Origin: Flavobacteriales bacterium
GTDB lineage: Bacteria; Bacteroidota; Bacteroidia; Flavobacteriales; CAJXXR01
Reading direction: 5' to 3'
Length of the DNA: 64,000 nt
NCBI GenBank assembly: GCA_049607525.1
Contig: JBMYWP010000011.1
Location: forward strand, 2,110-66,109
Numbering within the stretch: the stretch's first letter is position 1; each line of letters opens with the position of its first letter. Positions 23,083-60,235 of this stretch are shown here, in pieces. Position numbers and translations under genes: made by a program. The notes beneath the pieces were generated by a model. It saw only the letters and a program-made list of their open reading frames with translations. It had not been told where the DNA came from and did not search any database.

Positions 23083-23086
23083 TAGT

Positions 23087-39724: not shown

Positions 39725-40580
39725 CCCAAAATTTAGTCATATCCATTCGGTTGAAAAACCAACATTAAACGATTTTTATAAGCAATACCAAAAAGCTGAC
39801 TCAAAAAACCTAGATATTTTGGAAACCTTGGAAGTATTAAAAAATCTTTTTGAAAAAGAGTATTTCCCAAAGCAAATGAGCGGTATTTTAGATGGTTTAG
39901 AACAGGAATGGAATGTCAAAGATTATTACGCTGCAATGGATCGGGTAAAATATCAACTTTTGAAGAATAAACTCATCAAAAACAAGCCAGAGATACTTTC
40001 TGTGGTTCAAGACATAGCAAAAATCGTGGCTAAAAAGAAAGAGGAAATCTACAAAATGACCGCAGAGGAATTAGCCTTAATGGATGTTTCTGAATATTTT
40101 ATTGTAAAAGAAAAGGCTTACCATAATTTGGAGGAATTAAAAGATAAAATTGCTCCTGAAATTTTTAACCTTTTTGTTGTATTTCAAGTTGATGGTATTG
40201 TTCAAGCCGATGGTTGGGGCATTGGTTTGTTTGGGAATACACCACAATTTGTTCCTTATGTTTTTCAAGCGTTTCAGGCTGTGGGTTTAGACGATTTAGC
40301 TAATGATATTCAATCTGCCATCCATGCCTTCCCTCCAAATACAACTTTTAACAACCAAGAAGATGCTTATATAGATGTATTAAATTTCATGGAAAATCCT
40401 AAGCGAAAAATCACTAATATTGAACTTTTGAACTATTTAAAAGAGGAACGGGAAAAATACCATTTAGCCTATAATCATGCTTTGTATGATTTGGAAGAAA
40501 CCTTTCAATTACAAGCTGATTTTTGGGATATCGTTAAAACCTATTTTCATCAAAACATAAACCAAGTTGTTTATGTGTAA
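39717..40580 (+). CDS. DUF4375 / DMP19-like protein (tentative)
   Basis: 'FNLFVVFQVDGIVQADGWGIGLFGNTPQFVPYVFQAFQAVGLDDLANDIQSAI' resembles the DMP19 C-terminal domain core (..v.NGGf.q.f.N........a..al..iG....a..l..a). This call rests on memory only. Confidence 0.4.
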   Translation: MNNPKFSHIHSVEKPTLNDFYKQYQKADSKNLDILETLEVLKNLFEKEYFPKQMSGILDGLEQEWNVKDYYAAMDRVKYQLLKNKLIKNKPEILSVVQDIAKIVAKKKEEIYKMTAEELALMDVSEYFIVKEKAYHNLEELKDKIAPEIFNLFVVFQVDGIVQADGWGIGLFGNTPQFVPYVFQAFQAVGLDDLANDIQSAIHAFPPNTTFNNQEDAYIDVLNFMENPKRKITNIELLNYLKEEREKYHLAYNHALYDLEETFQLQADFWDIVKTYFHQNINQVVYV

Positions 40581-44167: not shown

Positions 44168-44483
44168 ACAAGACAATACCTTTATTGAGAAAAATTTATA
44201 CACCGGAAAATCATCTCGAAGTGTTTATAAATTCCTAAAACAAAGCTTGTGGGTTAACCTTATTTTCTTGGCTTTCGGATTAATGGTAGGTTATGAAATA
44301 TCCAATTTTGAAGCTGGAAAAGAATACAGTTTGCCCTTTTTTGTTGCTGATTTATACAATCTTGTGGGAAAATTTTGGATGATCATCCTTTGGATTTCCA
44401 TTATGGTACTTGTCTTTATCCATGGTATTTATAAAACCAAAGAATTAAAAAATATTAAAAAACAAAACAACAATGACTTTTAA
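44154..44483 (+). CDS. hypothetical small membrane protein
   Basis: 109 aa with two TM helices. Overlaps both neighbours (14 nt and 11 nt). Confidence 0.4.
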   Translation: MKKNKQDNTFIEKNLYTGKSSRSVYKFLKQSLWVNLIFLAFGLMVGYEISNFEAGKEYSLPFFVADLYNLVGKFWMIILWISIMVLVFIHGIYKTKELKNIKKQNNNDF

Positions 44484-45648
44484 AGAAGCAATAGACCAAA
44501 GAAATTTTGAACATGCCATAAATATGATAACCAATGGCGAAGATATTCTAAAAAGTCAATGGCAATTCAAATTATCAGATGCTTTTGCCAATATTATCCG
44601 ACATAAGGCTTTTGATGTTTTGGAAGCATTACTGGACAATGATCATATAGAATTGGATTTATTTGAATACGATAGCTTTAACAATACCATTTTCTTGGAA
44701 TTGGCAAAAGAAGGAAAACAAGCAGAAACTCTAGATTTCTTACAGAATAACATCAGTAAATTTGAAAATTTAGACGAATCTTTAGAAGACAAAACTTGGA
44801 TTCACCTTGCCATAGAACATGGCGCTTCTGTGGAATTTATAGATTGCCTAGCGAACAACGATGTCGAAATTAATTATAGAAACAAAGCCGAATCAACTTA
44901 CATTCATAGTATACTTTCGAACAATAATTTTCTGATGAAACCCGAGTTGAAATTGGAATACCTACCATATTTTATTGATCAAGGCATAGACATTAATGCC
45001 TTAGATATTGTTGGAAATACGGCTTTGCATATTGCTGTAGAAAAATCGGAAGAATGTTGTGATTTCCTTATGGAACAAGGAGCCGACCCAAATATTCCCA
45101 ATAAAAAAGGAGAAACACCTTATTTTCTAGCCTTAATTAATCAGGGAAACACCAATTTAGTTCTAAAAATGAACCAACAGTATCCGATAGACTTTGAGGT
45201 AGAAACAGGTAGAAAAACCAGTTTATTGTTTGATTATTTACAAACTATTTTTTCGGATTTAAATGAAGATTCTAAAAATGTAATTCAGTTGTTTGCCGAC
45301 AATGGTTTTGATGTATTTGCGCCAGAGATTTCTATGTATGGAGACGAAACCAGTGTTATGGAATTTGTGATGACCAAAAATGCCGACTGGCTTCAAACCT
45401 TCCTGGATTTATTTGATGTGGATGTGAATACAACCGATAATTTAGGGAATTCATTATTGCATAAAGTCTGTGGAATTGGATTAAATTTTGATCAGGCGAA
45501 AGCCAAAGATCTTTACCGAAAAGTAAAATTATTAATCAAATCTGGTGCAAATGTTCATTTAACCAATACCCAAGACAAAAAAGCGGTGGATTTGGCCACA
45601 GACGATAACCTGAAAGAAAAAACAGTTGCCTTACTTTTAAAACAATAA
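44473..45648 (+). CDS. ankyrin repeat protein
   Basis: 'DIVGNTALHIAVEKSEECCDFLMEQGADPNIPNKKGETPYFLA', 'DNLGNSLLHKVCG' and 'LIKSGANVHLTNTQDKKAVDLA'. Confidence 0.8.
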   Translation: MTFKEAIDQRNFEHAINMITNGEDILKSQWQFKLSDAFANIIRHKAFDVLEALLDNDHIELDLFEYDSFNNTIFLELAKEGKQAETLDFLQNNISKFENLDESLEDKTWIHLAIEHGASVEFIDCLANNDVEINYRNKAESTYIHSILSNNNFLMKPELKLEYLPYFIDQGIDINALDIVGNTALHIAVEKSEECCDFLMEQGADPNIPNKKGETPYFLALINQGNTNLVLKMNQQYPIDFEVETGRKTSLLFDYLQTIFSDLNEDSKNVIQLFADNGFDVFAPEISMYGDETSVMEFVMTKNADWLQTFLDLFDVDVNTTDNLGNSLLHKVCGIGLNFDQAKAKDLYRKVKLLIKSGANVHLTNTQDKKAVDLATDDNLKEKTVALLLKQ

Positions 45649-45688
45649 ATAATTAACAGCTTGTTTAACTCAAAACTGCAGTTAAGGA

Positions 45689-45933
45689 AATAGTCTTTTT
45701 TGTCAGTGTAGTATTTGATTTTCGTTAAGAAATTGGGAAACCTTGGACCAATTTTAGAAAAACAAATACGGTTTTTGGTCTTGAACCAAAAAACACCTTC
45801 AAAAAAGTGTCCTTTTCTTTGTTTCGTTTCTTTTGGACAAGCAAAAGAAATGAAAATCCTAGTGATAACGTCACGATGTTAAATTACATCTTAGTTAGAG
45901 GAAACTCTCAGAAAAACTTAAAACAATAATTCC
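45689..45933. repeat. duplicated intergenic leader element, copy B (partner at 15831..16073)
   Basis: See copy A. The 192-nt core 45714-45905 differs from copy A at 13 positions with no indels. Both hairpin stems are identical to copy A. Confidence 0.85.
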
Positions 45934-47280
45934 ATGTCTCAATCTTTTATAATAGCCTGCGAAGGTGGAAAACGAAAAATAGCCGAACTCCTTTTAGAAC
46001 AAGAAGTAGAAAATGTAAACTATACCGATGAAAAAGGACGAACGGCCTTGCATTATGCCGCTCATCGTGGTTATGTCGAAATTTGTAAAAAACTCTTAGA
46101 AAAAGGAGCCGATATTAACTACGAAGAACACAATGGAGAGACGCCTTTGTTTTTTGCGGCTTTACAAAATCAAATTCCTGTTATTAAATTACTGATTGAA
46201 AATGGCGCCAATACCGAAATTAAGGATAATCAGGGTAATAATTTGCTATTGATTGCGACTTCAAAAGGTCAAAAACCACTTTGCGAATATTATTTGGAGC
46301 AAGGTATGGACATTGAAATCACCAACAACGAAGGATTAACACCATTAATGTTGGCTGTTTTTTGTAAAAAAGTGCCTTTGGTAAAATTCTTTATCGAACA
46401 AGGATCCGATACGAGTATTACGACCAAATCGGGAAATAATTTATTGCATTTAGCTGTTGCTGGAAACAATATGCCCATCCTCAAACAAATTATTGAAACG
46501 GGAGCAAATATCAACGAGCCAAACTCCAACGGAGACACACCATTGCTTTCTGCGTGTACGTCCAATAATGTGATGTTGGTAAAATTGTTATTGGAAAAAG
46601 GTGCAGATGTTTACACCACCAATTCAGAAGGTATCTCCCCTATTTATCACGCTTGTGGACACAATCAAAAACAATTGGTACAAACTTTTTTGGACAATGG
46701 TTTAGATACCAATTATCAGTTGCCAGAATCGGGAACGGCGTTGGGTTCTTACCTCGATTTTGTAGAAACCCATCAAGATTTATCTTTAGGAAACATGTTT
46801 CAGTTTAATAATTCCTATACCAGTGGTGGAGAAAGTTTATTGCATTTGGCTGTAAAAAATGGGCATAAATTTATGGTGGAGCTTTTATTAAAAAACGAAG
46901 CAAACGTCAACATCCAAGACGAATCCGAAAATACGGCTTTGCATTATGCAGCATCCAATGGTAAAAAAGATATTGTAAAAATATTACTCGATCATGGTGG
47001 AGATGCCAACTTAACCAACGTTCGGGAACAAAAACCGATTGATTATTCTAATATTCGAGGGTTTAATGAAATTACCGAAATGATTTTAGAAGCAAATCCA
47101 TCGGCTACAAGCGTAAAAGAAGTGAAAAATGATGCTCCTACTCCAACTGTAACCGATATAAAATTAAGTCGTGAAGAAGCTCTAAAACAATTGAAAGAAA
47201 TTAAGGAGTTAAAGGATTTAGAGATATTATCGGAAGAAGAATTCAATGCTAAAAAAGCAGAATTAATGGCATTTATTTAG
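45934..47280 (+). CDS. ankyrin repeat protein with C-terminal SHOCT domain
   Basis: At least 10 canonical ANK repeats ('GRTALHYAAHRGYVEICKKLLEKGADINYEEHNGETPLFFAA...'). The tail 'LSREEALKQLKEIKELKDLEILSEEEFNAKKAELMAFI' matches SHOCT. Confidence 0.85.
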   Translation: MSQSFIIACEGGKRKIAELLLEQEVENVNYTDEKGRTALHYAAHRGYVEICKKLLEKGADINYEEHNGETPLFFAALQNQIPVIKLLIENGANTEIKDNQGNNLLLIATSKGQKPLCEYYLEQGMDIEITNNEGLTPLMLAVFCKKVPLVKFFIEQGSDTSITTKSGNNLLHLAVAGNNMPILKQIIETGANINEPNSNGDTPLLSACTSNNVMLVKLLLEKGADVYTTNSEGISPIYHACGHNQKQLVQTFLDNGLDTNYQLPESGTALGSYLDFVETHQDLSLGNMFQFNNSYTSGGESLLHLAVKNGHKFMVELLLKNEANVNIQDESENTALHYAASNGKKDIVKILLDHGGDANLTNVREQKPIDYSNIRGFNEITEMILEANPSATSVKEVKNDAPTPTVTDIKLSREEALKQLKEIKELKDLEILSEEEFNAKKAELMAFI

Positions 47281-47695: not shown

Positions 47696-48352
47696 ATGGA
47701 AAAAGAAATTTATAAGAAAACTTATACAGAAGAAAACACTCCAGGATGGCAAGCCATAGATGATGCCTTAGAAAAGGTTTATGCCGAAAAAGAACCAAAA
47801 CACTATGGACCACTTTGTGGTATTCATTACGCTGCTGGGGGAACAGATCCGATTGATGGCATAAGTATTTACGAATCTCAAAAACACATGCCTCACAAAC
47901 ATATTGTAAGTTATGGCATGTCAGAATTGTATTATAACGAAGAGGCTGCTGGAGGAGAATTTAGCAAATGGGGATTTGAATTTACCTTTCGTTTAAAACC
48001 TTATAAAGAAGACAATGGAGAACCAGGTTGGGCTTTGCATTTGATGAATAATTTGGCTCGCTATGTAAACAACAAAGAACGTTGGTTCGAAGAAAACCAA
48101 TTCATACCAGGAAATGGTCCTATTCGTTTAAATACCGATACCGAAATCATTGGATTACTCTGTGTATTGGATCCCGAATTAGGAAAAATAAACACGGTTC
48201 ATGGTGAAGTATCCTTCATACAATTGGTCGGAATTACAGCTCGTGAATTAGAAGAATTACAAAAAAATCCAACAACCGCAGCTGTTGAACAATTGGTGAA
48301 CGAACTTAAAAAAGATAATCCTTTGCTCATTACAGACTTGGAAAGAAAATGA
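47696..48352 (+). CDS. suppressor-of-fused (SUFU)-like domain protein
   Basis: 'TPGWQAIDDALEKVYAEKEPKHYG', 'DPIDGISIYES', 'HIVSYGMSELY', 'WGFEFTFRLK', 'PGWALHLMNNLARYV' and 'LDPELGKINTVHGEVSFIQLVGITARELE' follow the bacterial SUFU family pattern closely. Confidence 0.8.
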   Translation: MEKEIYKKTYTEENTPGWQAIDDALEKVYAEKEPKHYGPLCGIHYAAGGTDPIDGISIYESQKHMPHKHIVSYGMSELYYNEEAAGGEFSKWGFEFTFRLKPYKEDNGEPGWALHLMNNLARYVNNKERWFEENQFIPGNGPIRLNTDTEIIGLLCVLDPELGKINTVHGEVSFIQLVGITARELEELQKNPTTAAVEQLVNELKKDNPLLITDLERK

Positions 48353-48417: not shown

Positions 48418-48801
48418 ATGAAAACATTAACAATAATAGACGAATCTGCTGCTGGTGATATTCTTCACCAAATGTCATTACAGTTTGAAAAGGAGTATAT
48501 CACGGCTAAAGAATTAATAGAAAAACGGATTGAGGAAGAAATTAACAATTATAAAAACCAAGTGAATGATTACAAAAATGGCTTGGTGTTGCCTACCAAT
48601 TTAGAAAAGCGTTTAAACAATAAAAAAACACCCAAAATAGATCTAGAAAAGCAAAAACTAATTGCATTTGATGCTTTTCAAAACAACCATTTCATCTTAC
48701 TCATAGATGATGAACAAGTAGAAGATCTTCAGCAAAAATATTTGGTGGATGAAACGGCTAAAGTTTCCTTTATAAAATTAACGCCCTTAGTTGGCGGATA
48801 A
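48418..48801 (+). CDS. ThiS/MoaD-like beta-grasp (ubiquitin-like) small protein ending in Gly-Gly
   Basis: 127 aa. The N-terminal 'KTLTIIDES..ILHQMSLQF..ITAKELIEKRIEEEI' fits strand-strand-helix. The C-terminal 'HFILLIDDEQVEDLQQKYLVDETAKVSFIKLTPLVGG' aligns with E. coli ThiS 'ALAINQQIVPREQWAQHIVQDGDQILLFQVIAGG'. GGC GGA at 48793-48798 is followed directly by TAA. Confidence 0.55.
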   Translation: MKTLTIIDESAAGDILHQMSLQFEKEYITAKELIEKRIEEEINNYKNQVNDYKNGLVLPTNLEKRLNNKKTPKIDLEKQKLIAFDAFQNNHFILLIDDEQVEDLQQKYLVDETAKVSFIKLTPLVGG

Positions 48802-48811
48802 AAAACAGAAC

Positions 48812-51724
48812 ATGATTTTAGAAAAATTAGAAGCATTATATCAGAATTATAATCATTACGCTATTGTTGATACAATAAAGCAAATCCCTGAAAATGAATG
48901 GGATTTAGAAATCGTTTTACATTATGCAAGAGCTTTAAACAATACAATTGAATACCAAGAAGCTATAGATGTATTAAACAAATATAAGGAAGGTAATACT
49001 CGTGTAGAATGGCATTATATTCAAGCCTCTGCCTACCATTCATTAGCTGATGATGCATTTCGACATTCAGGGAAATTGAGCGTTTTGAAAGAATCTCAAG
49101 AATATTTAAATACTGGATTAAAACTTGTCTTGAGTGGACTTAAAATAGATGGTGGATTTCAAAAATTAAAATCATTATTTCAGGAATATAATGCTTTAAA
49201 AATAATACTTAAGAAAGCCATTGAAGAAAGCTTAAAATTTAATGATATTGATTTTTCCACCTTAACCCCAAAACAAAAAGCTGCTTTATTACTTAACAAA
49301 CTCAATGAAACAAGGCGCTACTATATGGCAAACGATCTTTTAAAGGTTGAAGTCTTTGATAAAATCAAAAATGAATCTAATGGTGTAAAAAAAGAAATTA
49401 TTATTGAGCTTATTCATTTAATTGATTCAAAATCCCATAAAAACACCAATACAAATAATATAACAACCTCAATTGGAGGTTTAATAAGAAGTAATCTGGA
49501 CTATTCCGAAAAGGAATGGATTTTTCTTTTTTCTAAGTTTTTAGAATCTATAGGGAAAGGAAAATACCCAATTGTTATTTCTAATTTCCCGATAAATTAT
49601 AGCATTCAACAATTAGAACGCTATTTAAAGAAAAACGAAGCTTCTAAAGAATTACTAGTTTTTATCAATCAAATTTTGGAAGATCCTTCATTTTCGGAAG
49701 ACAATAACCAATACTGGGGAAGCGATTTAAAAAAATCCAAAAAGAAACTCTTAGACATTTTGAGTAAAAATGGTGTCCATACTGCCTTTAAATTAGGAAA
49801 CTCCGATATTGGACCAGTAGTAAATAATATTATTGATACGATAAGTGCTCAATTTGAACAATTTAATACCATTTTCATTCAGGCAAGTGAGGCTAGTCAA
49901 TCGAAACCCACTGCCAAGTTTCAAAAATTGATTAAAGAAAATATCGAGCAAATTGGAGCAGATACTTATCGAAAAATAGCCCAGAAAATTTTAGAAACAA
50001 CTTTTGATATAGGAATCCGACAAGAAACCTCTTATTACAAGGTTTTTCTTTCATCTTCAAACCAGCAATTTATCAAAGGAATTATTTGGACCATGGAACG
50101 TTTTTCGGATAAGGAAACCATTACTATTTTAAGTAAATTATTTCAAAAAGGATATGAAAAAATTCCTGGTCAAGGTCCCGCAGCCGCTTCATTAGGAAAC
50201 GCCTGTGCTTATACCCTCGGAAATATGCGAGGAAAAGAAGGTTTAGGTGCACTTTCTCGAATTAAGCTAAAATTGAAGCAAAATAACATCAAAAAAATAA
50301 TTGATAAATATTTAGTTGAAGGTGCAAAAAAATACAATGTTTCTGTGGAAGAATTAAAGGAAATGGCTGTGCCTGATTTTAAACTCGAAAAAGGTATAAA
50401 ATCCATTTCTTTCGATGATTATCAATTAAACCTAAATATTCAGGGCAATAAAGTAGAACAACAATGGATAAAACCAGATGGTTCTCCTATGAAAAGTGTG
50501 CCTTCGGCAGTTAAAAACAGTACAACTTTAGCGAATCAATTAAAGGTTGTTCGCAAAGAAATTAAGGAAATTCAAAAAGTATATTCTGCCCAAAAACAGA
50601 GAATCGATAATCAGTTTATCCTTGATAGAACTTGGGATTTTAGCAATTTTAATAAATATTATATACATCATGGTTTGGTTTATACCGTTGCTCAAAAATT
50701 AATTTGGACGTTCACCAGAGAAAATCAATCTGTAAATGCTATTTTATTGAAGGATAAATGGTATTCTGTAGAGCATGATTTAATTGATTGGTTAGACGAT
50801 TCTACCACTGTAAAATTATGGCATCCAGTACGTGCAAAAGAATCAGAAATTATTGCTTGGCGCGAAAAAATGATGGATTTAGAGTGGAGTCAACCTATAA
50901 AACAAGCGTTTAGAGAATTGTATATTCTGACCGATGCCGAATTGAATACAAAAAACTACTCCAATAGAATGGCAGCTCATATTTTAAAACAACATCAGTT
51001 TTATATGTTGGCTGGACTGCGTGGTTGGAAATATTCTTTAATGGGTTCTTATGACGATGGAATTTATAACGAAGTCTGCAGTAAATACCTTCCTGAACAC
51101 AAAATAACCGCTGAGTTTTGGATTGACGAATTAAACGATTACGATGCCTTTAATGATGCTGGAATTTGGTTGTATATTTCTACCGATCAGGTGAAATTCA
51201 AAAATGAAGAAGGACAAGCGATGGACTTGGTAAATGTGCCAAAAATGGTGTTTACAGAAATCATGAGAGATGTCGATTTATTTGTAGGTGTTGCAAGTGT
51301 TGGAAACGATCCTCAATGGATGGATAACAATGGGGAAAGACAAGAAAGTAGAAACTATTGGGAGTCTTATTCTTTTGGAAATTTAACCGAAATTGCTAAA
51401 ACACGAAAAACCATTTTAGAACGACTGTTACCACGACTTAAAAAGATCCGTGATAAGGCACATATTGATGGGAAATTCTTGATTGTTAAAGGTGAAATAA
51501 GAACCTATAAAATCCATATTGGATCAGGAAATATTTTAATGGAACCAAACGACCAATATTTATGTATTGTTCCTTCAAGATCACCCGAAACAGCTACTAA
51601 TAAAATATTTATTCCTTTTGAAGGCGACAAAGGCTTGTCTATAGTTTTAAGTAAGGCTTTTTTATTGGCAGAAGACACTAAAATTACAGATTCTACTATT
51701 ACGAGTCAGATAAACCATAAATAA
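48812..51724 (+). CDS. large (about 970 aa) DUF4132-type protein (MolR/YehI family), paralog of 23087..28024
   Basis: ORF 48791..51724 has a TTG start. I prefer the ATG at 48812 (MILEKLEALYQ). The C-terminal motifs shared with the 1645-aa paralog are listed under that feature. Confidence 0.7.
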   Translation: MILEKLEALYQNYNHYAIVDTIKQIPENEWDLEIVLHYARALNNTIEYQEAIDVLNKYKEGNTRVEWHYIQASAYHSLADDAFRHSGKLSVLKESQEYLNTGLKLVLSGLKIDGGFQKLKSLFQEYNALKIILKKAIEESLKFNDIDFSTLTPKQKAALLLNKLNETRRYYMANDLLKVEVFDKIKNESNGVKKEIIIELIHLIDSKSHKNTNTNNITTSIGGLIRSNLDYSEKEWIFLFSKFLESIGKGKYPIVISNFPINYSIQQLERYLKKNEASKELLVFINQILEDPSFSEDNNQYWGSDLKKSKKKLLDILSKNGVHTAFKLGNSDIGPVVNNIIDTISAQFEQFNTIFIQASEASQSKPTAKFQKLIKENIEQIGADTYRKIAQKILETTFDIGIRQETSYYKVFLSSSNQQFIKGIIWTMERFSDKETITILSKLFQKGYEKIPGQGPAAASLGNACAYTLGNMRGKEGLGALSRIKLKLKQNNIKKIIDKYLVEGAKKYNVSVEELKEMAVPDFKLEKGIKSISFDDYQLNLNIQGNKVEQQWIKPDGSPMKSVPSAVKNSTTLANQLKVVRKEIKEIQKVYSAQKQRIDNQFILDRTWDFSNFNKYYIHHGLVYTVAQKLIWTFTRENQSVNAILLKDKWYSVEHDLIDWLDDSTTVKLWHPVRAKESEIIAWREKMMDLEWSQPIKQAFRELYILTDAELNTKNYSNRMAAHILKQHQFYMLAGLRGWKYSLMGSYDDGIYNEVCSKYLPEHKITAEFWIDELNDYDAFNDAGIWLYISTDQVKFKNEEGQAMDLVNVPKMVFTEIMRDVDLFVGVASVGNDPQWMDNNGERQESRNYWESYSFGNLTEIAKTRKTILERLLPRLKKIRDKAHIDGKFLIVKGEIRTYKIHIGSGNILMEPNDQYLCIVPSRSPETATNKIFIPFEGDKGLSIVLSKAFLLAEDTKITDSTITSQINHK

Positions 51725-52432
51725 ATGGGACTTTTTGATGTGCATCATAAAATCATTGGAAAAGAGATTCAAAATCAAATTGAAAACACCACCATCGCTA
51801 TTATTGGCCTTGGTGGTTTGGGTTGTCATGTTGCACAGATTTTATACAGAACCGGATTTAAAAATCTGATATTAATTGATGATGATCTGGTACAAGAATC
51901 CAATTTACCGAGACAAATTTTATTTCATCAAAGCGATATAGGAAAATCAAAAGTAACAGTTGCAAAAGCAGAATTAGAACGTTTTTGTAAAGGAAACATT
52001 CAATGTTTTCAAAAACGATTGACTTCTAAAAATGCCATTCAATTACTTAAAAACACTGCAATAACAGTAGATTGTACCGATAATTTTACTGCTCGTTATG
52101 CCATTAGCGAAAGCTGTAAACAATTAGATATTCCTATGATTTATGGAGGTGTAAATCGGTTTGACATTCAGGTGGCTACCTTTGGTTTTCAAAATGGGAT
52201 GTATTTTCACGAAGCTTTTCCCAATAAAAAGCTTTTATTTCAATCGGAAGATTGCAATGCTTCTGGTGTTTTACCTCATATGATTGCACTCGCAGCAAAT
52301 TATCAAGTGAATGAAATAATAAAAATGTTTTGCTCAGAAAATATTAAGACTAATCAGTTGTTTTGTTTTAATGCAAATACGGGGAAACAGCGATGGATTA
52401 ATCTTAGAAAACCTTTCAAGGAAAATAATTAA
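51725..52432 (+). CDS. ThiF/MoeB/HesA-family E1-like adenylyltransferase
   Basis: 'IAIIGLGGLGCHVAQIL' (GxGGxG, 51806-51823), 'LILIDDDLVQESNLPRQ', 'DIGKSKV', 'VDCTDNFTARY' and 'EDCNASGVLPHMIALAANYQVNEIIK' (conserved Cys + GVL). The ATG directly follows the TAA of the upstream DUF4132 gene. No rhodanese domain or CxxC zinc motifs. Confidence 0.85.
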   Translation: MGLFDVHHKIIGKEIQNQIENTTIAIIGLGGLGCHVAQILYRTGFKNLILIDDDLVQESNLPRQILFHQSDIGKSKVTVAKAELERFCKGNIQCFQKRLTSKNAIQLLKNTAITVDCTDNFTARYAISESCKQLDIPMIYGGVNRFDIQVATFGFQNGMYFHEAFPNKKLLFQSEDCNASGVLPHMIALAANYQVNEIIKMFCSENIKTNQLFCFNANTGKQRWINLRKPFKENN

Positions 52433-52622: not shown

Positions 52623-55259
52623 ATGACCATCATCCAACAATTCAAAAACCTAGAGCAACTAACCCATGTCACCGAATTTCTAATCGGTTTAACTCCAGCG
52701 GAACAAGAGGAATTAAAAAATCACCTCATTGCTTCTGATAAAACTGAAAATGAATTTCGTCGTTATGATGAAGAACATCTAGCTGTGTTGGCAGTCGTTC
52801 CTTACAGCATTTGGAAAAAGTTTAATTATTACCATCCCGGATATTTTTTAACCAGAAGTTATAAAGCGTATCAAGCATTCACCAATCCCATTTTTGAAAA
52901 ATTTCCACCGAGTTGGATGAATGCTTATTTTGCTTCTGAAGATCGATATGCTAATTTTGATAATTACCATCAATATCGTTATTACCAGGATAAAAATTGG
53001 ATAACTAAAATTGAAGATAGCAAGGTTGTCTTTGCCATTTTACAATACAGTTCTCGCGATGAAATACCACAATGTTGGCAGTTTTTTAACGACTTCCCAA
53101 AAGAAGATGAATTTTGGAAAAAGTATGTTCCACTATTTTTTGAAATAGAAACCCATATCGGACATTCTATTCGAAGAAAAGGAAAGAAAATTGATGATTT
53201 TGGTGGTTTTTACAGCTTGTTTTTACGTGCTGTTAAAGAAGGTATTTATAGCAAAAAACAAGTCTTAGGTTGGTGTTTAAAAGCCATGAGACGCCCGGAC
53301 AATAAATATTACGTAACATTTTTTAGAGATGTTTATCTTGGATTAGAACCTACCGTGGAAGAACGCATTTATTTCCAGAAAGAAATCATGGGTTTATACG
53401 ATTCGGAATATATTCTAAACTTTGTTTTAGAGGAAGTAAAAACGATGGCAAAAAGTCCAGAATTTGATGCCAATACCTTTCATCCTATTGCAGAGTTTTC
53501 AATAACAGTCAACACAAAATCTGTCTATACAAAAACACTGCAAATCATAAAATTATTACTAAAAACTAATCCCGATTTGTGGAATTCAGTTCTTATTCAA
53601 GGATTGATACAAACGGATGTAAAATTCCAAGAAAATATATTGACGCTTTTAGGGAAACAAAAGTTAAATGCCGAACATCAAGAGATGGCAGAAATGATGG
53701 CTGAGCAAATTCAAGTTTCTCTACAAAATCGGTTTCAGGAAGTTTTTAATATTCAGGGAGAGTCAACACAAATGGTTTCAACAGAAATCTACCAAAAACA
53801 AACACCTACTTTTGATGTATTGGCTTTAGAAAGTGTGAAACCAATTGAACAATGGGAAGACTTTGTAGCCCTTTTAAACAGTTTTTCTTCTTCTGAAAAT
53901 GTGGTAGATTATGAGCAAATTTTACAAGGACTTATTCATTTTCATTCTTTGGTAAGTCCTGAAGATTTCACGGCTTTAAAGCCAATTATTAAGCGAGTAT
54001 CTAAAACCAATTTTCTGTCTGATGAGAGAACTTCTGGCACGTTCAATAAACTTGTTTTCAAACATATTGAACGATGGACAAAAGAATGGTTTTTAGATGA
54101 AAATTTATTCATAGAATACCGAGGAACGCATAAACTGTTCAAAAAACGCATGGAAAGTATCGAATTTTATATTCATCAAAAATCGACTTTGCCTTTATTG
54201 AGTTTTCCTACCCATGCGCCTTATTGGGTTTCTGCAACCAGGCTAATTAATCGATTAGAAGAGTATCAAAACTCAGGCATTAAAATTGCTCCTTTCGATT
54301 TTGCAGTTGCCCTTGCAAGATGTGTTGTTCCATCAGATTTTGACAAGAAATCTATCGATAAACTTCAGGGTTTACCCAAAGATTTGCTCACTTATTTTTG
54401 TACAGAAGCATGTTTAGATCAATTTGATACCTCTGATCCATTATGGGCAGTTACAGCAAGAACCAAAGAACCTTATGCAATTCATGAAGCATTAAAAAAG
54501 CATGCTTATGCCAATTTTGAAGCCGTGGTATATCCTTTTAAACCTGAATTAATGGTTAAAGAATTTGAGGATTATGATGGAAAAGAAATAAAATATGACA
54601 CAAAAGCCAATAAGAACACCAATTTATTAGATGCAAAAGAAGAAACTTTATTGTATTCTGTAGAAAGATGTTATATAGAAGCTGTTTCAGACACACCATA
54701 TCTGCAATCTTTTATGCCCAACCACGAAATAGTGACTCCTTTGGATTTTTATGATATAGTTCCTGGTGTAAATTATGCTTATGAAGGTTATGCTTTGGAG
54801 CGCTATCTTCATTGTTTTTATATTTATGGAAAACCTGTAAATACCCAAAAAAATTATTTTTTAGCCGCTGCATTATTGTTCGACAAAACCAATTACAGAC
54901 AATTGGCTTTTGAAACTTTTAATGAAGGAATCGATTTAAAAGTGTTGGATTTAAAGGAAATGGCGCAAGCTTTTGTGCATTTTACGCAAGAAAATAAAAC
55001 ACCTGTAAAGCGTTTTACCATTTTACAAGATTATCTCTTCCAAAATGTAAATCACGACCAAGCCTTTATCCAATTATTAGAAGAAATAATTCAACTTATA
55101 GAAACAGTGCCAAAAGGTTTTAAATCTGTATTGGAAATATATCTACAGCTGAAACTAAAATACAATCAAAATACATCTCATATTTCATCAGCATTAGAGA
55201 AATTTAAAACAGTGACTTCCTGTAAAAAGGTTTGTAATCAACTAATAAACTTAAAATGA
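52623..55259 (+). CDS. large helical hypothetical protein (878 aa), paralog of 57194..60235
   Basis: Shared blocks with the 1013-aa protein include 'LSFPTHAPYWVSATRLINRLEEYQNSGIKIAPFDFAVALARC' / 'LSIPTNEGLWIKPEVLVERLEVYQSQNSEPNIHDFSLAIQRL' and C-terminal 'LFDKTNYRQLAFETFNEGIDLKVLDLKEM' / 'LFNEKKESRHLALECFIQLIELKLLSKDI'. It may correspond to the SWIM-associated DUF6493 family, but I am unsure. Confidence 0.55.
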   Translation: MTIIQQFKNLEQLTHVTEFLIGLTPAEQEELKNHLIASDKTENEFRRYDEEHLAVLAVVPYSIWKKFNYYHPGYFLTRSYKAYQAFTNPIFEKFPPSWMNAYFASEDRYANFDNYHQYRYYQDKNWITKIEDSKVVFAILQYSSRDEIPQCWQFFNDFPKEDEFWKKYVPLFFEIETHIGHSIRRKGKKIDDFGGFYSLFLRAVKEGIYSKKQVLGWCLKAMRRPDNKYYVTFFRDVYLGLEPTVEERIYFQKEIMGLYDSEYILNFVLEEVKTMAKSPEFDANTFHPIAEFSITVNTKSVYTKTLQIIKLLLKTNPDLWNSVLIQGLIQTDVKFQENILTLLGKQKLNAEHQEMAEMMAEQIQVSLQNRFQEVFNIQGESTQMVSTEIYQKQTPTFDVLALESVKPIEQWEDFVALLNSFSSSENVVDYEQILQGLIHFHSLVSPEDFTALKPIIKRVSKTNFLSDERTSGTFNKLVFKHIERWTKEWFLDENLFIEYRGTHKLFKKRMESIEFYIHQKSTLPLLSFPTHAPYWVSATRLINRLEEYQNSGIKIAPFDFAVALARCVVPSDFDKKSIDKLQGLPKDLLTYFCTEACLDQFDTSDPLWAVTARTKEPYAIHEALKKHAYANFEAVVYPFKPELMVKEFEDYDGKEIKYDTKANKNTNLLDAKEETLLYSVERCYIEAVSDTPYLQSFMPNHEIVTPLDFYDIVPGVNYAYEGYALERYLHCFYIYGKPVNTQKNYFLAAALLFDKTNYRQLAFETFNEGIDLKVLDLKEMAQAFVHFTQENKTPVKRFTILQDYLFQNVNHDQAFIQLLEEIIQLIETVPKGFKSVLEIYLQLKLKYNQNTSHISSALEKFKTVTSCKKVCNQLINLK

Positions 55260-55825
55260 TACACAAATCCATAGAAATAGAATACGCTGATAAAAAATTA
55301 TCAAAAACGGAATTTGAACAAAAAATCACTGCTTTTGAAACACAATTTAGTTGTAAGCTTCCTGCAGTTTTTAAAGATTTTTTGCATCAATATGGCAATG
55401 CGAGTTTAGAAGTTGTTGTTCCTATTTTAGAAACGAATCCCCTTTGTGATGAAGTTCCTTTGGATTTATTTTTTGGATTTGAAGCAGATGAAAACATCAT
55501 AGAAAACACAAAAATTGCAGACGGATTTCCCGTGGCGATTCCCTTTGCAGAAGATTTGTCTGGAAATTGGTATTATTTGTATTTAGGCCATCATCAGAAG
55601 GAAAGTAAAGTGTACTTTCATGACAGACAAGGACGTTATCATTGGACCGACAAACAATTTTACGACATGTTTGAAAATTTGGCTCCAGAAATTCAAACGT
55701 ATTTAGAACTCCGACAAAACAACCAACTTCCAGCAAAAGATGAAGCTTTTCATGACTTTTATTTGGTCGGAAATACCTTTGAAGAATTTATCAGCAATCT
55801 AAAACCAATTACATACGAAGATTAA
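55256..55825 (+). CDS. SMI1/KNR4 (SUKH) family protein
   Basis: 'ITAFETQFSCKLPAVFKDFLHQYGNASL' and 'IPFAEDLSGNWYYLYLG...KVYFHD'. 4-nt ATGA overlap with the upstream gene. Confidence 0.75.
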   Translation: MIHKSIEIEYADKKLSKTEFEQKITAFETQFSCKLPAVFKDFLHQYGNASLEVVVPILETNPLCDEVPLDLFFGFEADENIIENTKIADGFPVAIPFAEDLSGNWYYLYLGHHQKESKVYFHDRQGRYHWTDKQFYDMFENLAPEIQTYLELRQNNQLPAKDEAFHDFYLVGNTFEEFISNLKPITYED

Positions 55826-57190
55826 ATGAACACAACCTATACCTACAATTCACAAAGCGAAATAACTACCAAAGAAAATGGAAAAGAAATCTTTCTTTCT
55901 CATTTTAACGAATCCTATGCTATTGAAGAAAAACCATGTTTTTTCTGGGGAAAACTACAGCAACCCTACGTAATTGCTCGCTCGTTATTGATGCTGTCCA
56001 AAATTGTGTCCAGCAATTTTATGCCCACTTCTTCTGCCATGCGCGATCCGGTTATTACTTCTGGCGGAAATAAATTGCGTTTTGAAGCCTTTTCTGGTTG
56101 TTGTTCTATCTATGGAAAAGTAGATGTTTTACCAAAGGCGATGGATGGCGAATTTTTAGAACAAGGCACCACTAATGTCGATTTTAATCCAGATATGATT
56201 TCGGCTTTGAGCCAGATTGGTAGAGATGAAAAAGTGTTTTTTTCTGTAGGTAAAAAAGATTTTGTGTTGCAAAAATCCAACAAAAAAGTGGTGGAGAAAA
56301 AAGTCTCTTTACCCACCCGTTGGATAAAAGGAATGGCAAATGTTCAGCAAATTTCGGCTGAAATGAACAAGGTATTTACTTTTAATAAATTACAAACCCA
56401 ACTCTTTTTTAGAGCCATTCCCAAAGGCACTTTAAAAAACGATTATTACCTCAAGCAATTAGGAACAAAACCCATGCTTTCACCTGTAAAATCTAAAGGT
56501 GCCATTTGTATTGGTGGTTTGCACCGTTTGCGTGTAGTTGAAGGTATTTTGCCTTTAACCAAAGAGCTTCATGTATTTGATAATTATGAAAAAGGCGTTG
56601 CTTTTCAGTTTATTTTAGAGGATGTTCGTTTTACGGTAACCCTTTCTCGTAGCCATTGGCGTGGCTTTTCTGGCGAAGGAAGTACCTTGGAAAATCTTTT
56701 GGAAGACATTCCTGAGGCTTGGATTCAGAAATTAGATGAGTTTGCTCAAATAAAAGAAGAATTTTCAGAGAAAAATGAGGTCTTTCAAGAATTAGAACAA
56801 GCCAATTTTAAACATGTTTGTGCTCGTTTGGCTTCTATAGGATTATTAGGATTCGATTTGCATGACCAACAGTATTATTATCGCAAATTACCATTTAAAC
56901 TCGAACGAATAGAAAGTTTAAATCCACGCTATAAAAATGCTTTAAAAATATTGGCAAAAAACAAATACGAAATCACAGATATTACCGATCAAGGCATCAA
57001 AGTTTTGGTTGAGGGAAGCGGATTAAAACACCGCATTGTTTTGGATGATAAAACGGCAAAATGTACCTGTACATGGTATGCCGAACATCAAGGCAAACGT
57101 GGCGACTGCAAACATATTTTAGTTGCTAAAACCTTAAAAAACAATTCCGAAAAACAAATAGCAGATTTACTTAAAGAATTTGAATTATAA
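55826..57190 (+). CDS. SWIM zinc finger family protein
   Basis: C-terminal 'KCTCTWYAEHQGKRGDCKHILVAKTL' is CxCx(n)CxH (about 57062-57120). The start immediately follows the upstream stop. Confidence 0.8.
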   Translation: MNTTYTYNSQSEITTKENGKEIFLSHFNESYAIEEKPCFFWGKLQQPYVIARSLLMLSKIVSSNFMPTSSAMRDPVITSGGNKLRFEAFSGCCSIYGKVDVLPKAMDGEFLEQGTTNVDFNPDMISALSQIGRDEKVFFSVGKKDFVLQKSNKKVVEKKVSLPTRWIKGMANVQQISAEMNKVFTFNKLQTQLFFRAIPKGTLKNDYYLKQLGTKPMLSPVKSKGAICIGGLHRLRVVEGILPLTKELHVFDNYEKGVAFQFILEDVRFTVTLSRSHWRGFSGEGSTLENLLEDIPEAWIQKLDEFAQIKEEFSEKNEVFQELEQANFKHVCARLASIGLLGFDLHDQQYYYRKLPFKLERIESLNPRYKNALKILAKNKYEITDITDQGIKVLVEGSGLKHRIVLDDKTAKCTCTWYAEHQGKRGDCKHILVAKTLKNNSEKQIADLLKEFEL

Positions 57191-57193
57191 GCC

Positions 57194-60100
57194 ATGATCA
57201 ACACATTAATCAAACTATACGAGAATAGAGATCTGTTAGGATTAGAGCAGTTTTTAACCGATAAATCGGAAGAAAAAAGAAAAGCTGTTGGCGAGTTTTT
57301 AGATCAAACAGAAGATTTAAGTATTGAAATTGATCCAGAGATAAAACGTTACGTTCCACATTATGATACCACAGAAGATTATAGAATAAAAGAGGCCGAA
57401 AGACGTAGGATAGCTTGTGAAAAACATTTTTGCTATCAAATTCTTTGCGCTTATTATTATAGTTTTCAAGACTATCAAAAAAAATATCCTAAATACGCCA
57501 CACGGTACCATCCTTTTGTGCATGTGCCCTCTGTGTATAACGATATCATTACCAGAATTCTTTTCTTCCAGGATAAAAAAGAATATTTCACTGCCTTTTA
57601 CAAAGTGAATGTTCGAGAAAAACCTCAAGCTTTTATCGCAGATATTCATAAAAGAAATGCGAGTCCAGAATCGTTTGCAACTCGTATTCGATGGGAAACC
57701 ATGCGCGTTTTTTATACTTACGGATTAATGCCTTATGATAAAATGACTTTCTTGGGCTGTTTATTACATCCGTTTTGGGGAAAGTTAAATTCCTATGAAC
57801 CCGATTGGAAAGAGGGTTTAGACGATACTATTTTGAAGTGTTTTTTACCAACAGATGAACTTGCTTTAGAAGTTTTGTATGGTATTTTTGAAATGGAAAT
57901 CACCATATCTGGTGTGCTCTGGCAACAAGGCTATTCATTGGAATCCGTATTTCTGAGAATGGTACAAAAAGGACAATTGGATAGAGCTATTATTCAAGAA
58001 AAGTTGATTCAAGCCATGGGGAATCCAACCTTTAAAAAGTCTTCTTTTTCTTGGTTTACCAATATGTATAAAAACATTAAATTTTCTAATGAAGAAAATT
58101 TAAAGGAATTGCATAATCTCATGGGATTATTGACTTCTGATGTAGGTGGAATTCGAAAACTAGCTCTTGATGTTTGTAAAAAACAACATAAAAATAAGGC
58201 ATTTGACTGGCAGATGTTTGAAAGTCAGATTGCTTCTTTTGTGAATTTTGAAGGAAAAGGTAATTTAAAAACGTTTATTAAAATAATTGAGTTTCGCTTG
58301 AGTCAAAATCCAAAATCTAAGTCAAGGATATTAGAGGATTTAGCTGGTATCTATATCAATCAAGATGCTGATATCCAGAAACTGGCAACCGCTATTTTCT
58401 TATCAGAAACACTTTCAGAAAACATAAAAAGCGCCTTAGAAATCTATAAAGATAATATGATTACGGAGGTGCAACAGCAGTTGTTTGGTGATTATGAAAA
58501 GGCTTTGGCTCCACTAGAAAAATATGCTTGCACTAAAAATTATATTCCTAAGTTACCAGCAGCATTAGATATTTCAACCACAGAAGAAGATTATATTTAT
58601 TTGCTTTCACAAACCATAAAAAGTGAAAACAAAGAAGATAAAAATAAGATTTTGGCTCGTTTTGCAGATTTTCAGTATTTATCCACCGAAAAACCTGAAT
58701 TATTAAAACCTATTAAACGACAAGTTGACAATAAAATAAAGCGTTTTGCGTATACTGATTTTGACATTTTCTTGCATTATTGGATTTATAGTAAAGAAAA
58801 ATTTTCATCAATTTGGTCTTCTTGGATTCCGCTTACTAAACGTCTTAAAAAAGTAAAAAAATTTACTCAATTAAGGTATTATGATTTCAAACCAGAAAGT
58901 ATTCAAGGTGAATTAAAGAAAAAAGGATTACCACTATTGAGTGACCAATCTAAATCTTTGAATTATCAAATATTATTTAACCGATTAAAAGAATATTTCG
59001 CTAAAGAAGAAAAGCCAAATCTTGATGATTTCATGACAGCCTACAATAGCGTGAGTTGGTCAGATAGAGACACCGGAGTAAAGGAAATTAAACAAGAAAT
59101 AGGTACCTTTTTAGACGTTGATTGCTTTTTGTTTTTAGCCTATCGAATTGGTTTCCAAACAAAGTGGCATGATTATGAACGCTATATCGAAGTCATTTTT
59201 AAAGGTTCCTTTTATCATTCAATTATAGAAAATTTAGGAAAAGCCCCTATTCTTTCTATTCCAACAAATGAAGGTTTGTGGATTAAACCAGAAGTTTTAG
59301 TGGAACGATTAGAAGTTTATCAATCACAAAATAGTGAACCGAACATTCATGATTTTTCTTTGGCCATTCAGCGTTTATACTTGTATAATAAATTACCGAA
59401 TATAGATTCAGAATTGGAATACTTTCAGATTTTAGATTTTCTATTTACAGATAAAGATATTCCAAAAAAGAGAACAGAATATTGGGAAAAAGCGTGGGTA
59501 TTTGCTACACAGCGTAAATTTCCATTACAAACAAGTATTCTTTACAAATATGATAAGAAACAAGACTGGGCAGTCTTTAGTGATTTTAAACTAAAGGTAT
59601 TTTACGATGGCGAATTTACAAGGATTAATACAGAGCTTGCTCCTAATCTTCATGGTTGGACAATATATCCATATACTTTAACTTATGAAAAGCCATTTTT
59701 CACTGAGAATGATTTTATGCAAAACATTAATTACACTTTTTCTTATGATAGTAATTTGTATTTGTTAAATAAATTAATGGCTAAGCCACAATTTTTAGAT
59801 TATCACGGTCAATTATTTTTAATTGAACAACTTTTTAATGAGAAAAAAGAATCTCGTCATTTGGCTTTAGAATGTTTTATTCAATTGATTGAGTTAAAAC
59901 TATTGTCAAAAGATATTTTTAATATCATTACCGATATAATGACTTGCCATAGCAAGGCCGTTCCAGTTGGTAGAGTTTTAGAATTTTTAACTGCTTTAAA
60001 AGACATGCAAGGCGTTTATTACGATATCTGTATCCAGATTTTTGAACAACTTTTTGCTAAACTTCAATTGGATCAAATTCCACGTAGTTCTGCCAAGTTA

Positions 60101-60235
60101 TTTCAATTGTATGGCGAAATTTTAAAGGAAACAGATCATGAAATATCAGAACAGGCACAAAATGATTTAACAAGATTACAAACCGTAAAATCCTTGAAAA
60201 AAGCAATTGCTCCTTTGTTGAAAATGAGTGAATGA
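57194..60235 (+). CDS. large helical hypothetical protein (1013 aa), paralog of 52623..55259
   Basis: See 52623..55259. The start is 3 nt after the SWIM gene stop. Confidence 0.55.
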   Translation: MINTLIKLYENRDLLGLEQFLTDKSEEKRKAVGEFLDQTEDLSIEIDPEIKRYVPHYDTTEDYRIKEAERRRIACEKHFCYQILCAYYYSFQDYQKKYPKYATRYHPFVHVPSVYNDIITRILFFQDKKEYFTAFYKVNVREKPQAFIADIHKRNASPESFATRIRWETMRVFYTYGLMPYDKMTFLGCLLHPFWGKLNSYEPDWKEGLDDTILKCFLPTDELALEVLYGIFEMEITISGVLWQQGYSLESVFLRMVQKGQLDRAIIQEKLIQAMGNPTFKKSSFSWFTNMYKNIKFSNEENLKELHNLMGLLTSDVGGIRKLALDVCKKQHKNKAFDWQMFESQIASFVNFEGKGNLKTFIKIIEFRLSQNPKSKSRILEDLAGIYINQDADIQKLATAIFLSETLSENIKSALEIYKDNMITEVQQQLFGDYEKALAPLEKYACTKNYIPKLPAALDISTTEEDYIYLLSQTIKSENKEDKNKILARFADFQYLSTEKPELLKPIKRQVDNKIKRFAYTDFDIFLHYWIYSKEKFSSIWSSWIPLTKRLKKVKKFTQLRYYDFKPESIQGELKKKGLPLLSDQSKSLNYQILFNRLKEYFAKEEKPNLDDFMTAYNSVSWSDRDTGVKEIKQEIGTFLDVDCFLFLAYRIGFQTKWHDYERYIEVIFKGSFYHSIIENLGKAPILSIPTNEGLWIKPEVLVERLEVYQSQNSEPNIHDFSLAIQRLYLYNKLPNIDSELEYFQILDFLFTDKDIPKKRTEYWEKAWVFATQRKFPLQTSILYKYDKKQDWAVFSDFKLKVFYDGEFTRINTELAPNLHGWTIYPYTLTYEKPFFTENDFMQNINYTFSYDSNLYLLNKLMAKPQFLDYHGQLFLIEQLFNEKKESRHLALECFIQLIELKLLSKDIFNIITDIMTCHSKAVPVGRVLEFLTALKDMQGVYYDICIQIFEQLFAKLQLDQIPRSSAKLFQLYGEILKETDHEISEQAQNDLTRLQTVKSLKKAIAPLLKMSE

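Follow-up and report, generated by a model that had tools for sequence, protein, structure and literature searches.

A candidate ubiquitin-like protein module with an E1-like enzyme and a DUF4132/DUF7737 partner in a Flavobacteriales genome and other bacteria

The stretch of DNA analysed here comprises 64,000 nucleotides from a Flavobacteriales bacterium (GenBank assembly GCA_049607525.1, contig JBMYWP010000011.1, forward-strand positions 2,110 to 66,109) and is referred to throughout, at its full length, as the window. It carries three adjacent genes on the forward strand, encoding a protein of 127 amino acids (aa) that ends in Gly-Gly, a 970-aa protein with DUF4132 and DUF7737 domains, here termed the giant, and a 235-aa adenylyltransferase of the ThiF/MoeB type that resembles the activating enzymes (E1) of ubiquitin-like proteins (Table 1). 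The small protein is treated below as a putative ubiquitin-like protein (Ubl) and the three genes as a module. A first-pass annotation, made from the sequence alone, had described the three open reading frames (ORFs), the two glycine codons, the 10-nt gap between the stop codon of the small gene and the ATG of the giant at 48812, and the ATG of the E1 gene at 51725, which abuts the TAA of the giant with no spacer; all of these were read at the same positions in the present analysis. An alternative TTG start for the giant at 48791 gives the longest ORF and overlaps the stop codon of the small gene. At 31–32%, the three genes match the window in GC content, and they are proposed to form one operon. 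A promoter and terminator scan of the window, of a kind ill-suited to Bacteroidota promoters, gave background levels only, and Rfam and tRNA scans of the window were empty.

Table 1. Positions of the module, its paralogous pair and other genes of the window.
Feature	Position in window	Strand	Basis and remarks
Small protein gene, 127 aa	48418-48801	+	ORF read; tail KLTPLVGG; stop TAA
Gly-Gly codons (GGC GGA) ahead of TAA	48793-48798 (to 48801 with stop)	+	GGCGGATAA read directly; presumed adenylation site
Giant gene, 970 aa	48812-51724	+	ATG start; helical-repeat N-terminal half, DUF4132, DUF7737
DUF4132 domain, alpha/beta	50480-51028	+	Pfam; residues 564-746 of TTG-start ORF
DUF7737 domain	51395-51712	+	Pfam; secondary structure from AlphaFold2
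Cys918 codon (TGT) of giant	51563-51565	+	Motif NILMEPNDQYLCIVP; candidate thiol receiving or reacting with activated Ubl
E1-like adenylyltransferase gene (ThiF/MoeB type), 235 aa	51725-52432	+	PF00899
Cys177 codon of E1	52253-52255	+	
E1 motif GLGGLG	51806-51823	+	Read
E1 motif DDDLVQESNLPRQ	51878-51916	+	Read
E1 motif VDCTDNF	52067-52087	+	Read
E1 motif DCNASGVL	52250-52273	+	Read
Paralogous pair: 139-aa small protein without Gly-Gly end and 1645-aa giant	22663-28024	+	31% identity; Pfam
LRR-DUF1963 protein	32628-34850		
DMP19-like protein	39717-40580		
Two ankyrin-repeat proteins	44473-47280		
SUFU protein	47696-48352		Pfam
SUKH protein, 189 aa	55256-55825		Pfam

Searches of Pfam, NCBIfam, PADLOC and PDB sequences, the last also with a profile, gave no match to the 127-aa protein, and by sequence it does not belong to the ThiS/MoaD family profile (PF02597). 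The earlier statement that its C-terminal half aligns with ThiS/MoaD was thus left without support from Pfam, hhalign or PDB sequence comparisons. The likeness is one of fold. An AlphaFold2 model calculated with 49 homologues (mean predicted local distance difference test score, pLDDT, 77.7) is a beta-grasp in which two strands and a long helix are followed by a helical insert of about 45 residues (approximately residues 45–88), three further strands and a tail whose residues 125–127 are of low confidence and flexible. All 50 PDB matches listed by Foldseek for this model are beta-grasp proteins, which bears out the fold predicted in the first-pass annotation; the best was MOCS2A (5mpo_B; E-value 0.014, probability 0.99, target template-modelling (TM) score 0.60), with SAMP1 (4hro_B; target TM score 0.66) among the best and E. 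coli MoaD, ubiquitin, SUMO, NEDD8 and ISG15 among the others. As modelled, therefore, the resemblance to ThiS/MoaD is at fold level and spans the whole protein, and the combination of a beta-grasp (best E-value 0.014) with C-terminal Gly-Gly is that of ThiS/MoaD. Gly-Gly stands at the C-terminus of 120 of the 120 close homologues listed (LVGG in 118, LIGG in 2) and of 145 of the 150 best family representatives (the best 150 of 2,350 clusters), and the residues F118, K120, L121, T122, P123, L124, V125, G126 and G127 are invariant in the small-protein alignment. Retention of Gly-Gly at the extreme C-terminus is a hallmark of carboxylate activation.

A profile search of 1.84 billion representative proteins found 2,350 clusters (at 50% identity) with E-values of 0.001 or better, 1,117 of them at 1e-10 or better, and relatives turned up in at least 404 stretches when species-representative genomes were scanned, mostly those of Bacteroidota, with some in cyanobacteria, one in a verrucomicrobium and one in a Methylococcales metagenome-assembled genome. 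Gene order was compared over 81 loci, most of them taken with flanks of 10 kb. Of the 76 loci with room for it, 72 have a DUF4132/DUF7737 gene following the small gene; four loci of the survey have an orphan small gene. A ThiF-like gene follows the giant by 15–208 nt in 26 of 65 evaluable loci (approximately 40%), and two more loci have one, L038 and L037, the latter with the order giant-giant-Ubl-E1, from which it appears that Ubl and E1 stay together when the gene order changes. The adjacency of the three genes described for the window is therefore found in its relatives, and it recurs in dozens of genera, across families and orders. All-versus-all clustering of the approximately 1,100 ORFs of these loci recovered only three widely common families, namely the Ubl (79 loci), the giant (76) and the E1 (27). 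In 29 further metagenome loci every small protein ends in Gly-Gly and every giant is adjacent, with an adjacent E1 in four. Given the 120 of 120 and 145 of 150 Gly-Gly ends and the recurrence in dozens of genera, both the C-terminus and the gene order are conserved far beyond chance.

Some loci vary this arrangement. In locus L054 (10430–11034) a 70-aa and a 131-aa gene of toxin-antitoxin-like appearance, the 131-aa product having a PIN-like N-terminal sequence, are inserted between the Gly-Gly gene and the giant, and in Rapidithrix thailandica (locus L048, 3273–17847) five tandem DUF4132/DUF7737 paralogues surround one Gly-Gly small gene in the middle of the array. An apparent fusion from a high-GC organism (P0385, 969 aa) joins DUF4132, an out-of-frame-looking stretch and a C-terminal Gly-Gly beta-grasp; it is probably a frameshifted gene call, and it shows a giant-then-Ubl order and the presence of the family outside Bacteroidota.

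The E1-like enzyme consists of a single ThiF domain (PF00899, Pfam E-value 5.8e-53), with rhodanese (PF00581) absent. The four motifs quoted in the first-pass annotation were all located in this third ORF, and its GLGGLG, NLPRQ and DCTDN align with those of E. coli ThiF (1zud) and MoeB (1jw9), the closest solved structures (approximately 1e-22 and 30% identity), with Cys177 of DCNASGVL aligned to ThiF Cys184. GxGGLG, NLxRQ, DCTDN and the cysteine are kept in all E1s linked to the module. With a Rossmann fold, the adenylation motifs and best NCBIfam matches that are ThiF and MoeB equivalogs, the enzyme might be taken for a housekeeping ThiF or MoeB that lies beside a DUF4132 gene by chance, the small ORF being unrelated. 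We reject this explanation, to which we give next to no credence. Every one of those matches falls below its cut-off (157 against 275 for TIGR02356, 131.6 against 266 for NF004281 and 120.6 against 376.6 for TIGR02355), and both CxxC zinc motifs, present as CYRC in E. coli ThiF and MoeB, are absent from the window enzyme and from 15 of 15 linked E1s aligned. The operon context differs as well: tblastn with E. coli ThiC, ThiE, ThiG, ThiH, ThiS and MoaA to MoaE found none of these genes in the window, in agreement with the first-pass annotation, so that none lies within 10 kb of the module there, and a single moaC was found in the 81 loci. In a large protein database eight proteins are 42–100% identical to the window E1 (169 bits or more), at least seven of which adjoin a DUF4132 gene or share its contig, and beyond a gap in identity the remainder, at 39% or less and at most 132 bits, are generic MoeB, MoeZ and ThiF. 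The best of these outsiders, P0184, lies between ThiS/MoaD, MoaA, MobA and MoeA genes and from this molybdopterin setting is taken to be a housekeeping MoeB.

In a neighbour-joining tree, calculated without bootstrap, the linked E1s form two exclusive clades, A with Flavobacteriia and the window and B with Pedobacter, Saprospiraceae and others; the enzyme of the window thus stands outside housekeeping MoeB/ThiF, in a clade of its own beside DUF4132, as its description as a dedicated activating enzyme had implied. The mean score between the two clades is 110 bits, against 117 and 140 bits with generic relatives in a comparison set biased to clade A. Since neither clade is closer to the other than to generic MoeB/ThiF, E1s may have been recruited to the same position twice independently. 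PADLOC models of Cap2 named "E1-E2" match the window enzyme over the E1 part only. With the beta-grasp model, the E1 clade and the gene adjacency all upheld, the first-pass proposal of a dedicated Ubl-activating module tied to DUF4132 is supported.

The assignment of the giant to DUF4132, proposed from the sequence, was confirmed by Pfam (PF13569, 4e-37; 128.2 bits against a gathering score of 27), which also identified DUF7737 (1e-38). The AlphaFold2 model (mean pLDDT 80.5) has helical repeats throughout residues 1–520, then the alpha/beta DUF4132 domain and DUF7737, the latter modelled as a helix (859–875), five short strands (883–917), a low-confidence loop (920–938) and two helices (940–953 and 961–968). 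Foldseek searches of the PDB and BFVD with the full-length giant returned ARM, HEAT and TPR proteins only, neither Pfam nor Foldseek recognised an effector-type domain (nuclease, protease, pore or NADase) in it, and the DUF4132 and DUF7737 profiles had no match in the PDB, Pfam or PADLOC. Orthologues of the giant are 38–69% identical, and in an alignment of 51 of them numerous polar residues of the C-terminal half are invariant, among them WHP and QPxKQxxRE..T..E..S in DUF4132, which are common to E. coli YehI and the window paralogue. Most orthologues are shorter than the window giant by approximately 110 residues at the N-terminus (about 860 aa against 970, covering 77–86% of it), and the extra part in the window (48812–49300) is predicted to be helical and looks TPR-like. 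Literature searches on DUF4132, DUF7737, DUF6493 and the yeh genes yielded nothing on function.

A new finding of the present analysis is that the Gly-Gly end of the small protein and a cysteine of DUF7737 covary. The motif YKIH(I/L)GS.NILMEPNDQYLC(I/V)V, which includes Cys918 of the window giant, is invariant in 51 orthologues and occurs in every readable DUF7737 domain paired with a Gly-Gly protein (78 genes of genome loci, 17 of metagenome loci and locus L119, approximately 97 in all); the core NILMEPNDQYLC is kept in all five tandem paralogues of R. thailandica and in both giants of L037. Two pairs without Gly-Gly were found. One is in the window itself, where a 139-aa paralogue of the small protein (31% identical, E-value 9e-14) ends in LTFLTGTYW, and the 1645-aa DUF5724/DUF4132/DUF7737 giant that begins 5 nt past its gene reads HLGSG-MVQSKGMQLSIIA at the motif, with serine in place of the cysteine. 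In the other, on the metagenome locus L086, the small protein P0429 ends in KLTPLYGQD and its 841-aa partner reads HIGTTNVLMGSYDQALHLFPG, with histidine in this place. Loss of Gly-Gly coincides with loss of both the cysteine and the neighbouring PN residues, and no discordant pair was seen (Fisher exact test on 97 positive and 2 negative pairs, approximately 2e-4, uncorrected for phylogeny or otherwise). The two pairs look like independent losses because the architectures of their giants differ (1645 aa with DUF5724 against 841 aa). A metagenome scan with the 139-aa protein for more variants of this kind found nothing, another with a mixed alignment recovered Gly-Gly types only, and P0397 and P0423 were uninformative as possible variants. 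On L086 (4451–6503) the pair is followed by AbiH, NADAR and 2-oxoglutarate-Fe(II) oxygenase genes, a defence-like neighbourhood.

From these observations we infer, tentatively and with a little less than an even chance of being right, a self-contained Ubl transfer module in which the Ubl is covalently coupled to the giant; adenylation of the Ubl by the E1, any thioester, the biological target and the role all belong to this proposal. The 127-aa beta-grasp Ubl would be made with a mature, flexible Gly-Gly end, and the ThiF-type E1 would bind ATP and adenylate the Gly-Gly carboxylate. The activated acyl would then be transferred to a thiol, possibly Cys177 of the E1 first and then Cys918 in DUF7737, which the covariation points to as the partner thiol. 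The Ubl-linked giant could be a built-in carrier, like a ubiquitin-conjugating enzyme (E2), that passes the Ubl on, or could itself be the modified target, and its helical-repeat half together with DUF4132 might form a binding platform for the regulated or tagged partner. For loci without an adjacent E1 the simplest assumption is that a ThiF/MoeB-type enzyme encoded elsewhere would activate the Ubl; E. coli MoeB, which activates MoaD, is encoded apart from the moa operon.

Several observations weigh against covalent coupling of this kind. Approximately 60% of the loci have no adjacent E1. The covariation depends on just two negative cases, and it fits sulfur-relay or acyl-disulfide chemistry equally. 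No deconjugating peptidase is present in the module or among its conserved neighbours, JAB/JAMM and DUF6527 peptidases being absent from the conserved families and from the 25 most frequent Pfam families of neighbouring genes. No sequence or profile similarity of DUF7737 to E2/UBC proteins or to a known fold was detected. For the small protein, no Foldseek match among those listed reached an E-value of 0.001, a Pfam scan of 49 family members at E-values up to 10 gave one weak match to Urm1 (0.03) and none to ThiS, and hhalign assigned its profile a probability of less than 1% against either E. coli MoaD or E. coli ThiS.

A further-reaching form of the proposal would make this a widespread system of bacterial Ubl conjugation, with DUF7737 as a new thioester-forming, E2-like domain or a hybrid of E2 and ligase (E3), attachment to the giant itself or to clients, and the pairs lacking both Gly-Gly and the cysteine, including the second pair of the window, as inactive counterparts similar to ubiquitin E2 variants (UEV). 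DUF7737 does have an order of elements like that of the UBC fold (helix, beta-meander, cysteine loop, helices), with PN five residues upstream of the cysteine. However, hhalign of DUF7737 against an approximate alignment of four eukaryotic E2s gave a probability of 0.1%, and because this comparison gave no support the term E2-like is used hypothetically here; we consider this form doubtful, while giving it an appreciable chance. The first-pass annotation had seen no E2 or JAB protein, and none was found among the conserved families; when 141 flanking genes of approximately 60 non-redundant loci were assigned to Pfam families, with the 25 most frequent listed, neither E2, JAB nor rhodanese occurred.

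The covariation of Gly-Gly and cysteine could also arise if the small protein were a sulfur carrier. The E1 would adenylate it and a persulfide donor would convert it to a thiocarboxylate, after which the giant would use it as MoaE does MoaD, with the tail inserted into the larger partner, passing sulfur to a small molecule or RNA, or would react with it through its own cysteine as for Urm1 and Ahp1 (persulfidation and E2-independent conjugation); an acyl-disulfide or persulfide step with the partner cysteine, as for Urm1, fits the joint pattern of Gly-Gly and cysteine (PMC9574740). The E1 is closest to ThiF/MoeB, the best fold matches of the small protein are MOCS2A/MoaD and SAMP1, and the constant presence of a small protein with a large partner, and the occasional presence of the E1, resemble MoaD and MoaE with MoeB encoded elsewhere. 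Yet the E1 has no rhodanese domain, genes for a sulfurtransferase, a cysteine desulfurase or cofactor biosynthesis are not conserved near the module, the small protein lies outside the ThiS/MoaD family by sequence, and a helical scaffold of approximately 500 residues, together with DUF4132 relatives that occur with MoxR, VWA and SWIM proteins, suggests protein-assembly machinery rather than a biosynthetic enzyme. We regard a sulfur carrier as quite unlikely.

The universal pairing of the small protein with the giant, in contrast to an E1 missing from about 60% of loci, could also mean that the small protein is a non-covalent structural or regulatory subunit of DUF7737 giants, with LVGG as a docking peptide and the E1 as a later, optional addition that perhaps caps or regulates the tail by adenylating it. 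Small proteins without Gly-Gly persist beside intact giants, so pairing itself does not need Gly-Gly. It is the invariance of Gly-Gly, pointing to carboxylate activation, that makes this explanation decidedly improbable to us, along with the presence of ThiF-type genes from two distinct clades at one and the same position and the joint loss of Gly-Gly, cysteine and PN, which suggests a reactive centre over a docking surface. Covalent coupling of the Ubl to the giant remains our preferred, tentative explanation.

The setting of the module in the window bears on its role and is compatible with any of these chemistries. SUFU, SUKH, ankyrin-repeat, LRR (leucine-rich repeat)-DUF1963 and DMP19-like families, all encoded in the window (Table 1), are typical of polymorphic-toxin immunity loci, and many of the ORFs neighbouring these genes have no Pfam match. 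Downstream of the module (52623–60235), four consecutive genes encode a DUF6493/DUF7824/DUF7825 protein (878 aa), the SUKH protein (189 aa), a zinc-finger protein of the SWIM type (454 aa) and a second protein of the DUF6493 type (1013 aa). The third of these gives a match to the PADLOC model "SWIM_XIII" (1.5e-51), which stands for the SWIM partner that occurs, together with HEAT/ARM-repeat proteins, in retron type XIII; the ORFs scanned in the window include no reverse transcriptase family, and Rfam returned nothing for the window. An anti-phage or inter-bacterial conflict system, comparable to Bil, Bub and CBASS (cyclic-oligonucleotide-based antiphage signalling system) with Cap2, and with the giant as sensor or effector, would suit this setting, the retron-type-XIII-like SWIM protein included, and also the differences between genomes in the neighbours of the module, the toxin-antitoxin-like insert of L054 and the AbiH gene adjoining the L086 pair. 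Elsewhere, however, the flanks are ordinary: the 141 neighbours at approximately 60 other non-redundant loci are scattered metabolic and housekeeping genes (hydrolases, oxidoreductases, cupins and glyoxalases) with no enrichment of defence genes. No PADLOC model matches the Ubl or the giant, no relative of the small protein was found in IMG/VR viral contigs, and the giant has no recognised effector domain. The description of the locus as a conflict island therefore holds for the window (SUKH, SUFU, ankyrin, DUF1963) but not for its relatives, and since the immunity-type setting is specific to the window a conflict role has no support from conserved context; we consider such a role unlikely.

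Taken together, the module points to a bacterial protein-tagging or sulfur-transfer system that has apparently gone undescribed. The first-pass annotation knew of no Ubl-E1-DUF4132 system, and no description of a Ubl-giant-E1 module was found in the literature searched. The Ubl family is large and unannotated, extending over Bacteroidota, cyanobacteria, Verrucomicrobiota and Proteobacteria. A covalent relay between Gly-Gly and cysteine, if true, would introduce a Ubl acceptor of a new kind, provide a first functional handle on DUF4132 proteins, those of E. coli included, and supply another intermediate, in bacteria, between sulfur-carrier systems and tagging of the ubiquitin type.

Among known systems, the module resembles SAMP with UbaA, Thermus TtuB with TtuC and Urm1 with Uba4 in having a Ubl and an E1 but no E2, E3 or dedicated peptidase that could be recognised in the operon. 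The SAMP, TtuB and Urm1 Ubls function in the thiolation of tRNA or the synthesis of cofactors and act on many targets, whereas the Ubl of the module has a single obligate neighbour. Unlike E1s of the Urm1-Uba4 type, that of the module has no rhodanese domain, and it scores 115.7 bits against a cut-off of 450 with the equivalog model of the SAMP-activating E1 (UbaA). Conjugation of Urm1 is coupled to cysteines of its targets, which is comparable to the partner cysteine that goes with the Gly-Gly tail here (PMC9574740).

Bacterial Ubl conjugation has only recently been demonstrated, in operons of type II CBASS with Cap2, Bil I and II, and Bub I and II (PMC11601603). These operons all encode a UBC-type E2, recognisable as such in each known case, most encode a JAB or DUF6527 peptidase, and none contains DUF4132 or DUF7737 (PMC11601603). 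The module is like them in combining a dedicated Ubl (or a substrate with C-terminal Gly) with an E1 in a small bacterial operon, and unlike them in lacking a recognisable E2 or JAB and in having a minimal, MoeB-like E1.

The E. coli yeh cluster offers a comparison through the giant, since YehI, which like MolR/YehH is a DUF4132 protein of the cluster, has invariant motifs in common with the giants of the module, and the window also encodes SWIM and large helical DUF6493 proteins downstream. In E. coli K-12 (locus L083, 2196474–2210944) the cluster comprises WGR YehF, the DUF4132 pseudogene YehH, DUF4132 YehI, YehK, MoxR YehL, YehM, VWA YehP and SWIM YehQ. MoxR and VWA proteins were not found among the window ORFs scanned, and AAA_5 occurs in 2 of the 141 neighbours of other loci. 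The possibility that YehK is a cryptic relative of the small protein was rejected, the two being unrelated. Unlike the giant of the module, YehI has no DUF7737 domain and no neighbouring Gly-Gly beta-grasp gene, so that the small protein may go with DUF7737 and not with DUF4132 as such.

Closest in its parts are ThiS-ThiF and MoaD-MoeB(-MoaE), which likewise consist of a small Gly-Gly beta-grasp protein and a compact adenylyltransferase, with the equivalent of ThiF Cys184 present in the module E1. MoaD-MoeB-MoaE is similar, too, in pairing the small protein with a larger partner while the E1 is often encoded elsewhere. The small protein of the module differs from ThiS and MoaD in not belonging to PF02597 and in its helical insert of approximately 45 residues, the E1 differs from ThiF and MoeB in lacking both CxxC zinc motifs and any thi, moa or sulfur context, and the partner is a 970-aa DUF4132/DUF7737 protein. 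Many ThiS/MoaD-E1 neighbourhoods were described by Iyer et al. (2006), and a term search of that paper gave no mention of a DUF4132-type giant partner (PMC1779556). The module can thus be viewed as a variation on the pairing of Ubl and E1 in which the obligate partner is new and possibly contributes a new acceptor domain.

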